NCBI GenBank assembly: GCA_014763885.1
Contig: JACXUO010000001.1
Coordinates: 62-64,061 of the forward strand
DNA: 64,000 nt
Direction of reading: 5' to 3'
From: Campylobacterales bacterium
GTDB lineage: Bacteria > Campylobacterota > Campylobacteria > Campylobacterales > Sulfurovaceae
Shown: positions 2,797-63,608 of the stretch, piece by piece
Layout: every line of letters begins with the position of its first letter
Numbering within the stretch: the first letter of the stretch is position 1
Translations under genes and position numbers: made by a program
Notes under the pieces: generated by a model
What the model saw: the letters and a program-made list of their open reading frames with translations, nothing else
The model's database searches: none
Told to the model about the DNA's origin: nothing

Positions 2797-3019
2797 GTTA
2801 GCCTCCTTTGAAAATATCTTCTTATATCATACCATAAGCTAACATTTTTTTCTGATCACTGTTTAAGCGGATATATTGTGGTTCCCTATGTCTATTATTC
2901 AAGGTAACGCTCAGAGAGTAAAGGGATGGTAAGATTCACTTTTTCTCTCAGTTCACAGCATAATACTCCAAAATGGAACAGTGAGAGTCAGGGCATGATC
3001 GCCGAAGAAAAGATCTGCC

Positions 3020-3301: not shown

Positions 3302-3457
3302 TCACTGTGACGATTTATTATCGTCTTGGGTGTTGGTCATATCGATACGTTTTCCTTCATTGTCAAACTTGTTTCTAAAATAGTTTCTGATGATCACAAA
3401 GGTCATAAAGGCAAACAGTGCAAAAGCAAAAATATAAAAGATATCTCCAAAACTCAT
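3302..3457 (-). CDS. Small single-TM protein (51 aa), absent from the ORF track
   Basis: MSFGDIFYIFAFALFAFMTFVIIRNYFRNKFDNEGKRIDMTNTQDDNKSSQ; ATGA overlap with the trmL stop. Confidence 0.7.
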   Translation of the reverse strand: MSFGDIFYIFAFALFAFMTFVIIRNYFRNKFDNEGKRIDMTNTQDDNKSSQ

Positions 3458-3951
3458 GATTCTTCCTTTAGTCTATTGGGGATTTTGATCTTTTCAAATC
3501 CCTCGTAGTTCTGGCGCAGCGCCTCATAGGTGACGATCCCCACACTGACACCCAGGTTGAGACTGCGTCCGGCACCTCCCATCGGAATGGTGATACAGTT
3601 TTCGGGGTGCTCAAGAAGCACCCTCTCGTCGATCCCTTTGCTTTCAGAACCAAAAAGGATATAGTCACCCTTTTTGAAGGTTGCTTCAAAATAGAGCTTG
3701 TCGGTTTTTGTCGTCGCCATATGGGTATGCTCATCGATCGGGTGTGCAACAAGGAACTCCTCGAAACTTTCCCAGACAACCAGATCAAGATGCTTCCAGT
3801 AGTCCAGGCCGGCACGTTTGACCGCCTTGTCATCGATATCGAAACCGATCGGTTTGATCAGGTGAAGCGTGGCGCCGAGATTGACACAGAGACGTCCTAT
3901 CGTCCCCGTATTTTGAGGGATCATCGGCTCAACCAGTACAATATTAAACAT
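3454..3951 (-). CDS. trmL: tRNA (cytidine/uridine-34-2'-O)-methyltransferase, SpoU family
   Basis: IVLVEPMIPQNTGTIGRLC, RAGLDYW, FGSESKG, IPM...RSLNL motifs. Confidence 0.93.
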   Translation of the reverse strand: MFNIVLVEPMIPQNTGTIGRLCVNLGATLHLIKPIGFDIDDKAVKRAGLDYWKHLDLVVWESFEEFLVAHPIDEHTHMATTKTDKLYFEATFKKGDYILFGSESKGIDERVLLEHPENCITIPMGGAGRSLNLGVSVGIVTYEALRQNYEGFEKIKIPNRLKEES

Positions 3952-3953
3952 GA

Positions 3954-4790
3954 TTAGAATACAACCGTTTTATTTCCGTGGACAAACACACGGTCATTGA
4001 GCACATAGGAGAGGGCACGGGAGAGCACCACCTTTTCTACATCGCGTCCGGCACGCTGCATATCCCTCCACTCCATACGGTGGTTGACAGGGATCACATC
4101 CTGCGCGATGATCGGCCCTTCATCCAGATCATCGGTCACAAAGTGTGCCGTAGCACCGATGATCTTCACCCCTCTGTCATGGGCCTGCTTATAAGGGTTT
4201 GCCCCGATGAATGCGGGGAGGAATGAGTGGTGGATATTGATGATCTTCTTCTCATAGGCTTTGACGAATTTCGACGTCAGGATACGCATATATTTTGCAA
4301 GCACGATGAAATCAAACTCAAAGGTATCGATCAGTTCCATCACTTTGGCTTCATGCGCCTCCCGGTCCATCCCGTCAGCCGGGATACAATAGAACGGGAT
4401 ATCAAAACGGCGGACAAGATCTTCCAGTGTATCATGGTTGGCAATGACACACTCGATCTGCGCATCCAGTTCGCCGTCAGCATGGCGTATCAGTATATCG
4501 CCGAGCGCATGGGACTCTTTGGTAGCCATCAGTATGATCTTCTTGGGTTTGGGTATGATCACTTTGATATCTGCATCTTCAGGGACAGCAGCCTTCAGCT
4601 CCTGCAAAAGCTCCTGGGGCTCAAACCTCCCCGTCACCACAGAACGCATAAAGAACCTGCCGCTATCCTTGTCTACAAACTCACGGTTGGAATCGATATT
4701 CAGATCTTTTTCAAAAAAGACTTTCGAGATCGTATAGACCAGTCCCTTTGCATCATTACAGTCGATCAGAACCCTTGCTCTTGTTTCCAT
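3954..4790 (-). CDS. purU: Formyltetrahydrofolate deformylase
   Basis: N-terminal ACT domain; VLAKYMRIL, INIHHSFLPAFIGANPYKQA, GATAHFVTDDLDEGPII. Confidence 0.97.
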   Translation of the reverse strand: METRARVLIDCNDAKGLVYTISKVFFEKDLNIDSNREFVDKDSGRFFMRSVVTGRFEPQELLQELKAAVPEDADIKVIIPKPKKIILMATKESHALGDILIRHADGELDAQIECVIANHDTLEDLVRRFDIPFYCIPADGMDREAHEAKVMELIDTFEFDFIVLAKYMRILTSKFVKAYEKKIINIHHSFLPAFIGANPYKQAHDRGVKIIGATAHFVTDDLDEGPIIAQDVIPVNHRMEWRDMQRAGRDVEKVVLSRALSYVLNDRVFVHGNKTVVF

Positions 4791-6553: not shown

Positions 6554-6719
6554 AATCTATTCCTTACAATGAGGCTCAACCCCAAAAATATTTTCGCGAT
6601 TATAGCCAAAAAAACAGAAATCACCAAATTACCCCTATCATTTCTAACAAAATTTCGGTATAATCCAACCTTAATATTCACTGAGTTAACCCAAAGAACT
6701 CTTACGGACAAGGAAAGTT

Positions 6720-18334: not shown

Positions 18335-19096
<762 letters not shown>

Positions 19097-24742: not shown

Positions 24743-24763
24743 GTAGGTTTGGCACTGCCAAAC
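24743..24763 (+). repeat. GTAG-family REP element, copy 1
   Basis: GTAG-GTTTGGCA-C-TGCCAAAC: tetranucleotide foot plus perfect 8-bp palindrome. Confidence 0.9.
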
Positions 24764-25348: not shown

Positions 25349-25369
25349 GTAGGTTTGGCACTGCCAAAC
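25349..25369 (+). repeat. GTAG-family REP copy 3
   Basis: Identical to copy 1. Confidence 0.9.
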
Positions 25370-25460: not shown

Positions 25461-25481
25461 GTTTGGCAGTGCCAAACCTAC
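25461..25481 (-). repeat. GTAG-family REP copy 4, inverted relative to copy 3
   Basis: Exact reverse complement of copy 1; 91-bp spacer from copy 3. Confidence 0.9.
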
Positions 25482-50736: not shown

Positions 50737-50822
50737 TGCAAACCCTTTACTACGAATTTTAAAAGTTCGTGATTATACCCAAACAAGTTTTAATTTAATT
50801 TTAAACTAAACTTATTTTCGGG

Positions 50823-58839: not shown

Positions 58840-58962
58840 TTATTTTCCTAGTTTCTTCTTATAATATGCTACGATACCTAAACCTACAGCTACCAATCCG
58901 AAAATGATTACGATCGATCCGATGATCACCTCATTTGGTACAGGACGGCTTAGATCAAACAT
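58840..58962 (-). CDS. Small single-TM protein (40 aa) between ileS and gatA
   Basis: [40 protein letters not shown]; TAATG overlap with the ileS stop. Confidence 0.75.
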
Positions 58963-61709
58963 TAGCTTACCACCTCGGCACATCTGGCACATACTTTTTC
59001 TTCGCTTGCGGATACGAACTTCCAACATCGAGGACATTTACAAGCAGTTGCTTTATGAATCGCGTATGTTTTGCCTTCTACTTCAAAACTAGCCAGCTTC
59101 TCACCTTCGCTATCAGGTTTCACCGCTGATACGACAAACCAGTCTTCCATATCCTTATTGCTGCTAAAGCCTTCGATCTCTCCGACCAGCTCAAGTTCCA
59201 ATGTTGCTTTGATCAGTTTCTCTTTTCTGAGTTTGTCAACCTCTTCATAGAAACCTTCTCTGATCTCCATCAGCGCTGAAACGTCAAACGGTGCCTCCAT
59301 AGCCGGCAGCGGCTCATAGAGAAGATCGAAGATATTTTCCATCTCTCCCTTGAATATCTTCGGCGCATACTCCAGGATCTCATCCGTCGTATAGGTCAAT
59401 ACAGGCGCTACAAGACCCAGCATTGACTTGGCGATCAGTGCCATTGCTGACTGCGCTGCTCTTCTGGTTGTACTCTCTTTTGCATCACAGTAGAGTCTGT
59501 CCTTACAGATATCCATATAGATACCTGAGAGTTCGTTTGTCAGGAAGTGGTTCAGTGTTGCAAACCCTTTGAGGAAATCATTTGCCTCAAATGAAGCTTT
59601 GATCGAAGCAAAGACCTCACCTGCTTTTGCAATAATCCATCGATCCAATTCACCATACGATTCAACCGGTACGATCGCATCCAGATCATCCACGTTTGCA
59701 AGCAGGAATCTGAATGTGTTACGGATCTTTCTATACTGTTCCGCTGTCTGCTTCAGAATGTTGTCTGAGATCTTGAGGTCTGACTGGTAGTCGGAAAGTG
59801 CTACCCACAGTCTGAGGATCTCCGAACCGTACTCCTTGACCACCTTGTCAGGGGCAACAACGTTCCCCTTGGACTTTGACATCTTCTCACCCTTCTCATC
59901 CACGGTAAATCCGTGAGTGATCAGTCTCTTATAGGGTGATTGTCCTGTGATCGCAGCAGAAAGAAGCAGTGAACTTTGGAACCAACCTCTATGCTGGTCA
60001 CTTCCTTCTATATATAGTGATGCCGGGTATTCTCCCGCATCATAGTTGCCGCTCTTGATCACCGAGTTCCATGTCGAACCGCTGTCAAACCACACATCAA
60101 GGATATCATTGATCTTCTCAAGGTCATCCGGGTTGTACTGACTTCCTGCAGGCAACAGCTCAGCGATACTCATCTCATACCATGCATCTGCACCCTTCTC
60201 ATCGAAGAGTGATGCGACATGCTCTAGTACCTCTTCATCCAGGATCACCTCTTTGGTACTCTTGCTTCTAAAGAATGCGATAGGAACACCCCAGCTTCTT
60301 TGACGGGAGATACACCAGTCAGGACGGCCTTCGATCATCGGCTTGAGTCTGTTCTTTGCCGAAGCCGGGAAGAATGCTACCTCTTCGATCGCATCAAGTG
60401 CTGTTTGTCTAAGCGATTTATCCTCACCTTTTGCCGTATCGTCTACCGAGATGAACCATTGGTTTGTTGCTCTGTAGATCAAAGGCTTTTTCGTTCTCCA
60501 ACAGTGTGGATAGGAGTGCACGAACTTGCTTTGTTTTAACAGGTTCTCTCCAAGCAGTTCCAGGATCGGCTCGTTTGCTTTGAAGATATGCATCCCTACA
60601 AACTCTTGTGCATTTGGAAGAAGGTTGAGACCTACTACTGACTCATCATAGCAGCCTCTCTCATCCACAGGCATCACGACATCAAGACCATACTTAAGCC
60701 CTACTCTGTAGTCATCCTCACCGTGTCCAGGTGCGGTATGTACACATCCGGTACCGCCATCCATTGTTACGTGTTCACCAAGTACAATTTTTGAACTTCT
60801 TCCGTTGAGTGGGTTGATCGCCAAAAGGCCTTCCATCTCTTTGGCCGTAAGCTTTCTGCTTGCATGGCCGCTTACGACTCCCTCTTCGATCATCGCATCA
60901 TATCTGGCATCCGCTACGATGTGTCCATCATCTGTAAGTACATACATCTCTTCAGGATTGATCGCGATACCTGTGTTTGACGGAAGTGTCCAAGGTGTCG
61001 TCGTCCAGATCACCAGTCCGGCTTTACCCTCGACTCCGATCTTCTCTTTCGCTGCATCACTGAGTTCAAAATGCACATAGATGGAGTAGTCCTCTTTATC
61101 CTCATACTCCACCTCTGCATCCGCAAGTGCTGTCTGCGCAGCCCATGACCAGAAGATCGGTTTATGACGTTCAACCAACAGCCCTCTCTTTGCTACTTCA
61201 CAAAGCGTTCTGTAGATGTTGGCTTCAAATTTGAAGTCCATCGTTACATAAGGGTTATCCCAGTCAGCGATACATCCCAGAGATTTAAATCCCTCTCTCT
61301 GGATATCGACAAACTTCGCGGCATGGTCACGGCAGAGTTCTCTGAACTTCTCTGTCGGCATCGCCTCTTTTTTCTCCTTGCCGAGCTTCTCTTCGACTTT
61401 CTGCTCGATCGGCAATCCATGACAGTCCCAGCCCGGAGTCATACGTACGGCTTTACCCTGAAAGTAGTTGTATTTAAGAATGATATCTTTGAGTATCTTG
61501 TTGAGTGCATGTCCGATATGGATATCCCCGTTTGCATACGGAGGTCCATCATGCAGTGTGAACATCTCAGCACCGGCACGTTTTGCTTTCATCTGCTCAT
61601 AGATATCTGCATCAAACCAGGCACTGTATTTCTTTGGTTCATTAGTGGGGAGGTTTCCGCGCATCGGGAAGTCTGTTTTGGGAAGGAGTAACGTCTCTTT
61701 AAAATCCAT
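58962..61709 (-). CDS. ileS: Isoleucine--tRNA ligase (type 1)
   Basis: [26 protein letters not shown]-terminal CPRC..CARC; start at ATG 61709. Confidence 0.98.
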
Positions 61710-61736
61710 CTGTGATAACACCTTGAAATGAGGCTT

Positions 61737-62005
61737 ATCACCGTACTAGATACCTACCCCGAATTTAATGCAGTGATTTCGTTCAGAATCAAGGCAGATT
61801 TTTGAAGGACTAGCCGTAGCTAATTTGAAAAAATCTAACGCAGGTTATGGGCGAAAGCACTGCACCCTTTGGGAAGAATGAAAAAGGACAATCTTCAAGC
61901 AAAAAAATCTTCGAATTACCTACAGGTAGTCCTTCAGATTTTTTCACTCACATCTCACCCTTCTTCAATCTTTTAAATGCTCGGGTAGGTATCTAGTACG
62001 GTGAT
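61737..62005. mobile_element. 269-bp non-coding element with perfect 23-bp terminal inverted repeats (MITE/ERIC-like)
   Basis: ATCACCGTACTAGATACCTACCC at 61737-61759 with exact reverse complement at 61983-62005; nested internal hairpins; no ORF. Confidence 0.7.
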
Positions 62006-62045
62006 TTACCTCGTGATAATTATCTCGTGATTGTACCCAAAAGAG

Positions 62046-62068
62046 TATTATAAAACGCTTTTATAATA
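62046..62068. promoter_or_regulatory. Palindrome carrying back-to-back TATAAT -10 boxes (divergent promoters)
   Basis: TATTATAAAA-cgc-TTTTATAATA. Confidence 0.55.
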
Positions 62069-62073
62069 AGTCC

Positions 62074-62209
62074 CAAAATCTACGCTGCCGCTAAAGCATC
62101 TTACGACTCAGCATTTCGTGCTTCGCTTACACTGTGTTTTAGTCACTTGTCAGCAGCAGGTGCCCGAAGGAAGTGCCCTTGGGGTGCTCATGTGACTAGT
62201 CACATTTTA
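62074..62209 (+). ncRNA. Candidate structured sRNA or dispersed REP-like element
   Basis: Follows TATAAT 62062-62067; GC-rich stems; ends in the 16-bp palindrome ATGTGACTAGTCACAT plus TTT. Confidence 0.35.
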
Positions 62210-62783: not shown

Positions 62784-62819
62784 TCCGTCCACTTATTCAC
62801 AAGTGAGTGAGTAAAAGAT

Positions 62820-62895
62820 GACCTATTAGCTCAGCTGGTAGAGCAACTCCCTTTTAAGGAGTGGGCCCATGGTTCGAATCCATGATGGGTCACCA
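62820..62895 (+). tRNA. tRNA-Lys(UUU)
   Basis: Cloverleaf; anticodon loop CTTTTAA; TTCGAAT; CCA. Confidence 0.97.
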
Positions 62896-62970
62896 TTTAA
62901 TTTTGTAGTTTTCCTCAGCGGAAGGCTCATGCAACGTTGTTGCTTTATTTATGACTGTTTGGATCTAGAT

Positions 62971-63046
62971 GACCCTTTCATCTAGTGGCCAAGGATGCTG
63001 CGTTTTCATCGCAGACACAGAGGTTCAAATCCTCTAGGGGTCGCCA
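62971..63046 (+). tRNA. tRNA-Glu(UUC)
   Basis: Anticodon loop TTTTCAT; TTCAAAT; CCA. Confidence 0.96.
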
Positions 63047-63059
63047 AATTGACAGTTAT

Positions 63060-63135
63060 GGTCGCTTAGCTCAGTTGGTAGAGCGCTACCCTTACAAGGT
63101 AGATGTCACAAGTTCGAGTCTTGTAGCGACCACCA
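63060..63135 (+). tRNA. tRNA-Val(UAC)
   Basis: Anticodon loop CTTACAA; CCA. Confidence 0.97.
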
Positions 63136-63206
63136 TTTAAATCTTGTCTTAATTTAAGGTTAAGGTGAGTATAATTTAAGCTCAAATTAAAATTTGAGAT
63201 TACGGT

Positions 63207-63283
63207 GCGGCGGTAGTTCAGTTGGTTAGAATACCTGCCTGTCACGCAGGGGGTCGCGAGTTCGAGTCTCGTCCGCCGCGCCA
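63207..63283 (+). tRNA. tRNA-Asp(GUC)
   Basis: Anticodon loop CTGTCAC; CCA. Confidence 0.97.
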
Positions 63284-63294
63284 CTATTTTAGGT

Positions 63295-63370
63295 GACCTA
63301 TTAGCTCAGCTGGTAGAGCAACTCCCTTTTAAGGAGTGGGCCCATGGTTCGAATCCATGATGGGTCACCA
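63295..63370 (+). tRNA. tRNA-Lys(UUU), second identical copy
   Basis: Same sequence as 62820-62895. Confidence 0.97.
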
Positions 63371-63391
63371 TTTTTATACATATTTTCATTT

Positions 63392-63467
63392 GGTCGCTTA
63401 GCTCAGTTGGTAGAGCGCTACCCTTACAAGGTAGATGTCACAAGTTCGAGTCTTGTAGCGACCACCA
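63392..63467 (+). tRNA. tRNA-Val(UAC), second identical copy
   Basis: Same sequence as 63060-63135. Confidence 0.97.
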
Positions 63468-63508
63468 TGTTTTACATTAATTTTTTTAATGTCATTCTTT
63501 TTATTGGT

Positions 63509-63585
63509 GCGGCGGTAGTTCAGTTGGTTAGAATACCTGCCTGTCACGCAGGGGGTCGCGAGTTCGAGTCTCGTCCGCCGCGCCA
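63509..63585 (+). tRNA. tRNA-Asp(GUC), second identical copy
   Basis: Same sequence as 63207-63283. Confidence 0.97.
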
Positions 63586-63608
63586 CTTCTTTTAAAACAA
63601 TCAAAAAA

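Follow-up and report, generated by a model that had tools for sequence, protein, structure and literature searches.

A structured 269-bp inverted-repeat element of an undescribed family in the ileS leader of a Sulfurovum clade

In classical families of miniature inverted-repeat transposable elements (MITEs), the terminal inverted repeats (TIRs), and not the interior, are the conserved part. The Correia/NEMIS elements of Neisseria, which are about 100-155 bp in length, have conserved 26-bp TIRs and TA flanks and no conserved branched interior. Pneumococcal BOX elements are modular (A, B and C modules, variable in number) and stable, and they reportedly keep their pairing by compensatory changes; RUP is a TA-duplicating MITE whose mobility is probably supplied by a transposase of the IS630 type. 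We analyzed an element that invites comparison with these systems in a 64,000-nt stretch of contig JACXUO010000001.1 from a Campylobacterales bacterium (the whole stretch is designated the window). The element lies upstream of the aminoacyl-tRNA synthetase gene ileS, where a sequence-only reading had described a 269-bp block with perfect 23-bp TIRs and had proposed a new MITE family. Our comparisons identify this block as a non-autonomous, non-coding transposable element, in operational terms a MITE, of a family that is undescribed in Rfam and the searchable literature and whose subfamilies use different target duplications. Very probably, the element was mobilized in trans, inserted into the loop of a hairpin in the ileS 5′ untranslated region (UTR), and tolerated there.

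The family comprises several subfamilies, of which type I includes the window copy. Like Correia/NEMIS, it consists of small, non-coding TIR elements with TA flanks that are intergenic near genes, would be co-transcribed as hairpins, and would be mobilized in trans; compared by description only, it differs in its length of ~270 bp, its four-helix architecture, its invariant apical loops, and its subfamily-specific termini. BOX comes closest to it in modular structure upheld by compensatory changes, and RUP, like Correia/NEMIS, in TA flanks and co-transcription, yet both have other hosts, sizes, and sequences. In the present family the order of the modules and the overall length do not vary, and a single architecture is common to subfamilies with differing ends and duplication lengths. 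The duplications, which are TA in type I and probably type III, TAA or TTA in type IV, and 4 bp in type II, recall Tourist- and Stowaway-like elements (IS5 PIF/Harbinger and IS630 Tc1/mariner), from which the family differs in that a cognate transposase or autonomous copy was not found here. With regard to membership in IS630/Tc1-mariner itself, TA flanks are present and no transposase was identified in the loci searched. ERIC/IRU elements are likewise imperfect palindromes, and both can be transcribed within mRNAs, but ERIC is ~127 bp and enterobacterial, whereas the element is 269 bp and resides in another host. The resemblance to ERIC that had been suggested for the element's core did not survive comparison: blastn against 5,426 E. 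coli genomes returned no match, and the best ungapped matches to the ERIC1R and ERIC2 primers contain 11 and 10 mismatches, respectively, in 22 positions.

REP, BIME, and REPIN sequences, associated with RAYT tyrosine transposases, are 20-40 nt in length, bear a GTAG tag at the end of the palindrome, and generate no target duplication (PMC3733652). The family shares with them dispersed extragenic palindromes, inverted pairing, and a short conserved tag, the apical motif containing CGTAGC. It differs in being ~270 nt long, closed by TIRs, and flanked by 2-4-bp duplications, with GTAG inside the apical loop; membership therefore failed on size, on the duplications of sister subfamilies, and on the internal position of GTAG. 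PATEs derived from IS200/IS605 carry subterminal hairpins on one strand and lack both TIRs and duplications; such a derivation was ruled out by the presence of TIRs and duplications. Searches of the literature for the family returned nothing beyond one unrelated paper on GTAG/CGTC-tagged REPs.

Insertion at the ileS site

The TIRs of the window copy match over 23 positions with 0 mismatches, as had been described, and 0/100 shuffles reproduced the pair; the 64-kb window holds no third TIR site at ≤3 mismatches. The inverted repeat runs on into the host flanks to reach 30 nt at 90% (61730-61759 / 61983-62012). Folding bore out the proposal that the TIRs close a branched structure. The minus strand of the element folds at -118.2 kcal/mol (z = -11.3 versus shuffles) and the plus strand at -108.5 kcal/mol (z = -10.0); the fold comprises a stem that closes the element, a pair of long arms, and, between these, a CCC/GGG mini-hairpin (Table 1). 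Arm A with its AAGGC/AACGC core was found as described previously, while the stem reported as arm B, at about 61902-61944, turned out to be only the tip of a longer arm. The tips of the two arms (61803-61829 and 61910-61936) are 27-nt inverted copies of each other (85%), and their 4-bp stem carries a compensatory swap, TAGC/GCTA in arm A versus TACC/GGTA in arm B.

We compared the upstream region with 80 related ileS loci (L001-L080) of Sulfurovaceae and Campylobacterota genomes. The N-terminus of IleS encoded in the window is 97% identical to that of two metagenome-assembled genomes (MAGs), SpSt-1228 and Ca. Sulfurovum kebritense, and 80-93% identical to that of 78 further Sulfurovaceae or Campylobacterota genomes. 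The element was absent from the ileS site in 80/80 of these loci, including the two at 97% identity, and it is for this reason that we regard it as an insertion and not as a regulator of ileS. Of the intergenic region in the window, the promoter block alone is recognizable in the relatives, where 23-57 nt separate its end from the ileS ATG; the normal ileS 5′ UTR in these genomes is about 45 nt. Comparison with the relatives thus shows that the element sits in the predicted 5′ UTR of ileS, between a conserved promoter and the Shine-Dalgarno sequence, which agrees with the leader position proposed earlier.

The empty site in L001 reads ...ATCACGAGG-ccgga-CCTCactAAGGTGttatcacagATG and contains the hairpin GAGG-ccgga-CCTC, whereas the filled site of the window reads ...ATCACGAGG-TAA, then the element, then AAG-CCTCatttcAAGGTG.... 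Alignment of the two therefore shows that the element went into a small hairpin of the host, at its loop. A variable small hairpin between promoter and Shine-Dalgarno sequence was seen in the ileS 5′ UTRs of L001, L002, L005, L006, and L011 and of sequencing runs X1 and X12; variants include GAGGccggaCCTC, GGGGcaaCCCT, AGGCaaaaGCCT, and GGGGttaCCCC, and other relatives have none.

Filled and empty alleles also occur in metagenomic runs. An uninterrupted 8.5-kb contig of run X1 is identical to the window and runs through the element; a related strain in X1 that is sixteen-fold more abundant skips 61725-62019 and has an 18-nt GGGG-TTA-CCCC hairpin instead. Run X12 holds a filled allele (~96% identical) together with an empty allele, GAGG-gcaaa-CCTC. 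The insertion is found with the same flanks and few differences in runs X2, X3, X4, X12, X24, and X25, among which X2, X3, and X4 derive from microbial mat and algal metagenomes and differ by few indels. Those runs labeled as RNA that hold the window element consist of undirected contigs, possibly DNA, with both filled and empty alleles present. Profile searches detected no second copy in the window or the 80 related loci, and run X1 has no further contig with a match of ≥80% to any stretch of the element. One clade thus carries a single copy, fixed at this site, which its sister clades lack. The sequence-only reading had taken a single-copy element deeply conserved upstream of ileS as the mark of a cis-regulatory RNA; the element is single-copy, but it is not conserved at this site.

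Subfamilies, transposition marks and hosts

An exact 20-mer of the TIR found no match in 185,579 species genomes, and the TIR variant of the window is private to its clade. Run X3 contained partial matches to arm A that had different outer stems, and the arm tip was therefore chosen as the search query. A degenerate 24-mer of the apical pattern, AGGRCTASCYGTAGSTAATTYRAA, matched 97 metagenome loci. Twelve of these (type I) are full-length homologues of 269-273 nt in unrelated intergenic contexts, 69-77% identical to the window copy and up to 92% identical among themselves. The family profile matches the window copy from end to end (62005-61737; nhmmer E = 4.5e-74). Type I copies begin with TYACCGCACC preceded by TTA and end with GGTGCGGTRA followed by TAA, so that TA stands on both sides; both flanks are TA in 11 of the 12 other copies, and in the twelfth, L104, the TA is offset by one base. 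At a thirteenth locus, L172, arms of type I are closed by different ends. This element (3587-3852) is a chimera in which type II-like ends (GGGCATCTCTAAAAACCC) close arms of the type I kind, and it is evidence that ends and interior recombine.

Sister subfamilies share the order of closing stem, arm, CCC-N3-4-GGG, and arm, while their stems and ends are unrelated. Type II has ends GGGCACCTCTAAWAACCC and is exactly 266 nt long; type III has ends AGTACC and probably a TA duplication; type IV has ends GGCTACTCCAA and direct TAA or TTA repeats; type V is G+C-rich with ends AGTACTCCTTCAATGAG; and a further subfamily is formed by the AACCTGAGTTCGAC group. Identical, variable, AT-rich 4-mers abut both ends of type II in 23 of 35 distinct copies, and direct TAA...TAA or TTA...TTA repeats flank type IV in 6/6 distinct copies. 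Transposition is therefore demonstrable in sister subfamilies through these 3-4-bp target duplications. Metagenome Ga0256837 contains nine near-identical type II copies on large contigs, and two type II copies lie on one 496-kb contig. Copies are almost all intergenic, and their orientation relative to neighboring genes is random under both definitions of the element strand (37/27 and 28/35). The empty sites, the full-length relatives elsewhere, and the duplications of sister subfamilies together support the MITE reading.

Decay products include derivatives of ~140 nt and ~200 nt, a ~50-nt solo-end hairpin, and an arm broken by an insertion of ~25 nt (L102 3438-3576, L152 4865-5003, L137 10120-10170, L147 4896-5096, and L156 about 3380-3500). 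Copies of type I and type II lie within ~220 nt of each other in L148 (2285-2552 and 2775-3041) and end to end in L165 (about 100-235), which suggests insertion hot spots or mutual targeting.

Sulfidic and hydrothermal metagenomes are rich in the family, and the contigs that carry its elements span 24-61% G+C. In L151, the type I copy adjoins a P-type ATPase gene whose product is 87% identical to a Nitratifractor protein. L138 carries a partial type V copy between an SDR gene and a DUF294/CBS gene, and the named relatives of the latter (64-79% identity) are all gammaproteobacterial MAGs. This half element (3916-4062) consists of one end, one arm, and the CCCGAAGGG hairpin, and it fills the gap between the two genes; in L179, where the DUF294 gene is 89% identical, the SDR and DUF294 genes are 11 nt apart (2989-3001), which represents a further empty site. 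Provisionally, the hosts are Sulfurovum, a Nitratifractor-like genome, and a probable gammaproteobacterium, hence several genera and probably two phyla; these assignments rest on the names that the sources give to related proteins. The proposal of a new MITE family in this lineage thus held as to the family, although the window genome appears to have a single copy and the family extends beyond the lineage.

Blastn of the element against plasmids and phages yielded nothing or a 32-nt chance match in an Erwinia phage; type II found nothing in plasmids and no match in metatranscriptomes, and the apical motif found nothing in viral contigs. A match resembling the type II TIR in viral contig L178 was judged unrelated to the family.

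TA, 3-bp TWA, and 4-bp AT-rich duplications are the pattern of IS630- and IS5-type DDE transposases. Judging from this spectrum of duplications, the family was probably mobilized by an enzyme of the IS630-/IS5-type DDE kind, which would act in trans and make short staggered cuts. In a contig of run X5 (9,161 nt), left and right type II ends face each other in the correct inverted orientation across 7.1 kb, with TTAA next to each; the span is a candidate autonomous or composite element.

Conserved loops, covarying stems and rival explanations

In comparing the subfamilies, we noticed that their pattern of conservation is unusual. At least six subfamilies retain their total length together with the CCC-N3-4-GGG hairpin, the AGGC/AAC junction, and the apical motif of 24 nt, and the motif lies ~70 nt from each end on opposite strands, which gives the element a pseudo-two-fold symmetry. 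RNAalifold analysis of a 14-sequence type I alignment predicted 109 pairs, 67 of which show compensatory double changes; 32 pairs form the closing stem, and the internal arms give as much covariation as the closing stem does. Paired cells amount to 96.9%, compared with ~42% when partners are slid by 1-3 columns, and 0/500 shuffles reached the observed pairing values. In all three alignments the strand with the better consensus fold is the one that reads CCC-GARG-GGGUG, which is the ileS-sense strand in the window (-142.9 versus -126.8 for type I, -116.0 versus -109.2 for type II, and -42.2 versus -28.9 for the arm set). On the 5′ arm, we counted 69 G.U versus 3 A.C wobbles in type I and 48 versus 3 in type II. 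This strand-specific bias was dropped as decisive proof of an RNA or single-stranded DNA form, because the invariant C.A / G.U positions of the motif are symmetric and the count is equal (192 versus 192) on the union of pairs from both strands.

Several observations sit uneasily with the view that the ileS feature is an ordinary trans-mobilized, non-coding element, even though we hold this view to be very probably correct. The window copy is flanked by AA on the promoter side and TA on the other, so that the target duplication sought at the ileS site did not appear in clean form, and the TA flanks of type I cannot be told from a 2-bp extension of the TIR. The element is single-copy in the source metagenome, with one copy per 64 kb of window and one matching contig in the source run, where a MITE is expected to be multi-copy. 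Neither the genome-wide TIR copies nor the transposase with the same ends that the sequence-only reading had proposed to look for could be found: 1.19 Mb of loci contained no autonomous element or transposase with matching ends, no transposase accompanied TIR pairs >300 nt apart or solo TIRs next to open reading frames (ORFs; L136, L100), and copies with detectable termini measure about 120-325 nt throughout. No usable RNA support was found for transcription through the element. Finally, conservation is the inverse of that in a classical MITE, since ends differ between subfamilies, apical loops are invariant, and stems covary; a decayed insertion sequence does not predict invariant loops with covarying stems. 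On the other side, the element is small and non-coding (269 bp, where MITEs stay below ~500 bp, and no conserved ORF), and the empty ileS sites of L001-L080, of the abundant strain in X1, and of a contig in X12 attest to presence/absence polymorphism.

It is possible, and we raise the idea tentatively, that the family is not a set of decayed insertion sequences but a mobile structured nucleic-acid module in which the four-helix fold with its apical motifs is itself recognized and the so-called TIRs are merely the closing helix. Recognition might then be by the mobilizing enzyme, with the cuts placed at a measured distance from the motif, or by some host factor that works on folded single-stranded DNA, a cruciform, or RNA, although we regard this, too, as doubtful. 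Such a module is compatible with the insertion history and alters the kind of element that was inserted. In its favor are the conserved features and the constant length (exactly 266 nt in type II, 269-273 nt in type I) among subfamilies with unrelated stems and termini, the compensatory pairs, the better consensus fold on one strand in 3/3 alignments, the L172 chimera, the lack of an ORF in any copy, and the diversity of hosts, from 24% to 61% contig G+C and with Nitratifractor-like (L151) and gammaproteobacterial (L138) neighbors. Against it, covariation between TIRs is expected under, and explained by, symmetric recognition by a transposase; quasi-palindrome correction during replication could keep DNA stems paired in the absence of structural selection; the wobble asymmetry vanishes on the union of pairs; and insertion is random in orientation with respect to genes. 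The search pattern itself selected the motif, so that its invariance is partly ascertainment, while the surrounding architecture was unselected. Invariance of the loops across diverse hosts and the fixed length are explained neither by TIR recognition nor by quasi-palindrome correction. We know of no binding protein, enzyme, or transcript for such a module.

Two further explanations concern the resident copy and its gene. Domestication of this copy within the ileS mRNA is improbable, whether as a 5′ stabilizer, as a site for processing by RNase III, or as a modulator of ileS-gatA translation. The insertion is fixed in every sample of the clade in which it was seen (hot-spring, microbial-mat, algal, and compost metagenomes), the TIRs of the window copy are still perfect, a 1-nt deletion at 61757 in the X2/X3 allele lengthens the closing helix, and the element extends a pre-existing 5′-UTR hairpin with the Shine-Dalgarno sequence free. 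However, the window copy is among the least stable in the family (-109.8 kcal/mol versus -101 to -149), and a leader of ~45 nt suffices in relatives. Domestication is not favored because in the X12 allele one substitution (61998 A>G) makes the TIRs mismatch and another, at the tip of arm B (61926 G>C), is uncompensated, and because an empty allele coexists in that run; the uncompensated changes also weigh mildly against structural constraint at the ileS site. An isoleucine- or tRNA-Ile-sensing cis-regulatory leader particular to ileS (a T-box-like element, riboswitch, or attenuator) would fit the location between a promoter and the start of an aminoacyl-tRNA synthetase gene and the very stable structure, yet it is highly improbable. 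The element is missing upstream of ileS in all relatives compared, its homologues occupy unrelated intergenic sites in either orientation, no terminator/anti-terminator alternative is apparent, and, as had been noted for T-box motifs, Rfam returned for the element region neither a T-box nor any other family at gathering score, and no credible match at E ≤ 10. Membership among T-box or aminoacyl-tRNA-synthetase leaders thus failed, and the comparative data effectively exclude what would be an isoleucine-sensing leader. That the block is a chance palindrome or an assembly artefact is scarcely conceivable. Beyond the origin of the window in a metagenome-derived assembly, nothing speaks for it; the shuffles, the fold (z -10 to -11), the recurrence of the identical sequence in an independent run, on an 8.5-kb contig, and the near-identical alleles seen in five or more further runs all speak against it.

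According to the favored account, a trans-mobilized element inserted into the hairpin loop of a short ileS 5′ UTR in the ancestor of one species-level Sulfurovum clade and stayed as the only copy in that genome. Transcription through it would give an ileS leader of ~313 nt in which the element would fold as a four-helix domain closed by its own TIR stem and the GAGG/CCTC pairs. We attribute the tolerance of the element to its folding on itself, with the Shine-Dalgarno sequence left free. For ileS, the most likely consequence would be either none or a modest shift in the stability or processing of the mRNA, and not isoleucine-responsive control.

A tolerated insertion, and not a regulatory RNA, thereby accounts for the oddly long, hyper-structured ileS leader, which prevents its annotation as a T-box-like leader. 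The filled and empty alleles provide a natural pair with and without a 270-nt rod in the 5′ UTR of an essential gene. The conserved loops raise the question of whether the apical hairpin is read by a transposase, by a protein of the host, or by a partner RNA, and of whether certain MITEs are structural modules under selection that exchange their ends so as to use any transposase at hand. If the element is indeed a structured module, it would represent a previously unrecognized class of mobile structured nucleic acid of ~270 nt that is spread across Campylobacterota and probably Gammaproteobacteria; its stems, including the TIR, would be free to change, and cut sites would be measured from the folded motif.

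The ileS leader and neighboring sequence

Table 1. Positions of the element, its parts, and the surrounding ileS features in the window
Feature	Positions	Strand	Remarks
Whole type I element, 269 bp	61737..62005	- (ileS-sense)	Central hairpin reads CCC-AAA-GGGUG
TIR proximal to ileS	61737..61759	.	ATCACCGTACTAGATACCTACCC on the plus strand; 23/23 with partner
TIR proximal to promoter	61983..62005	.	ATCACCGTACTAGATACCTACCC on the minus strand; inverted-repeat analysis
Arm A	61769..61864	+	Outer stem TGCAGTGATTTCG/CGAAAGCACTGCA (61769-61788 / 61845-61864)
Arm A interior			AAGGC/AACGC internal loop, then inner stem AGATTTTT/AAAAATCT
Arm A apical motif	61806-61829	+	AGGACTAGCCGTAGCTAATTTGAA; essentially invariant in 53 distinct arm sequences, stems covary
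Central mini-hairpin CCC-TTT-GGG	61865..61873	.	Between the arms; all subfamilies keep CCC-N3-4-GGG
Arm B	61874..61970	-	Apical motif AGGACTACCTGTAGGTAATTCGAA on minus strand at 61910-61933
Host 5′-UTR hairpin, 3′ half	61730..61733	-	CCTC on ileS-sense strand; empty-site comparison
Host 5′-UTR hairpin, 5′ half	62009..62012	-	GAGG on ileS-sense strand; empty-site comparison
Shine-Dalgarno sequence of ileS	61719..61724	-	AAGGTG; unpaired in centroid fold of whole leader
ileS coding sequence	58962..61709	-	ATG at 61709; tRNA-synt_1, E = 4e-149
Probable ileS promoter	62023..62042	-	Block TTTTGGGTACAATCACGAGA; -10 TACAAT at 62035-62030
Second sigma-70-like promoter candidate	62047..62076	-	TTGGGA-18-TATAAT; 10/12 consensus match only

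The element ends close to the start of ileS, with 27 bases counted between it and the ATG where 28 bp had been given. Both hexamers proposed previously as -10 boxes are genuine on the minus strand and lie beyond the element; TACAAT belongs to the probable ileS promoter, and TATAAT (62052-62047), just upstream of the TTTTGGGTACAATCACGAGA block, belongs to the second candidate. The motif of the promoter block, TTTTGGnTAyAATCnCGArA, occurs at four sites on the minus strand of the window (6592-6611, 19061-19080, 50765-50784, and 62023-62042), three of which sit 18-40 nt upstream of leuD-, pyrH-, and rplU-like starts. Because it recurs upstream of these three genes, the block appears to be the typical promoter of this lineage, and it could be used to predict transcription starts across the window genome. 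The element should be transcribed in the ileS leader, because the promoter lies upstream of it. The predicted fold of the full leader contains the element as a self-contained domain closed by the TIR stem and four host pairs (GAGG/CCUC). A metatranscriptome contig of 161 nt spans 61980-62140 across the promoter and is uninformative on transcription of the leader. Neither strand of the element carries a convincing, conserved, and correctly spaced -35/-10 pair (consensus judged by eye). Across the alignment of 14 type I sequences, no ORF keeps its position or frame, and a small-protein gene inside the element was ruled out by this comparison.

A small ORF and then gatA follow downstream of ileS, and a gene with a CinA domain diverges on the plus strand. 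At gathering score, Rfam recognizes only seven tRNAs in the whole window, and a search of the element at permissive E values returned only below-threshold microRNA and small-RNA noise. The seven tRNA genes form a cluster (62820-63582) with a near-identical duplicated three-tRNA unit, whose paired segments are 62816-62898 versus 63291-63373 and 63204-63290 versus 63506-63592. The window also contains a GTAG-tagged REP-like palindrome, GTAGGTTTGGCACTGCCAAAC, at 24743-24763 (+), 25349-25369 (+), and 25461-25481 (-), with none expected by chance. These palindromes are unrelated to the ileS element and are of a kind reported for Sulfurovum (PMC3733652).

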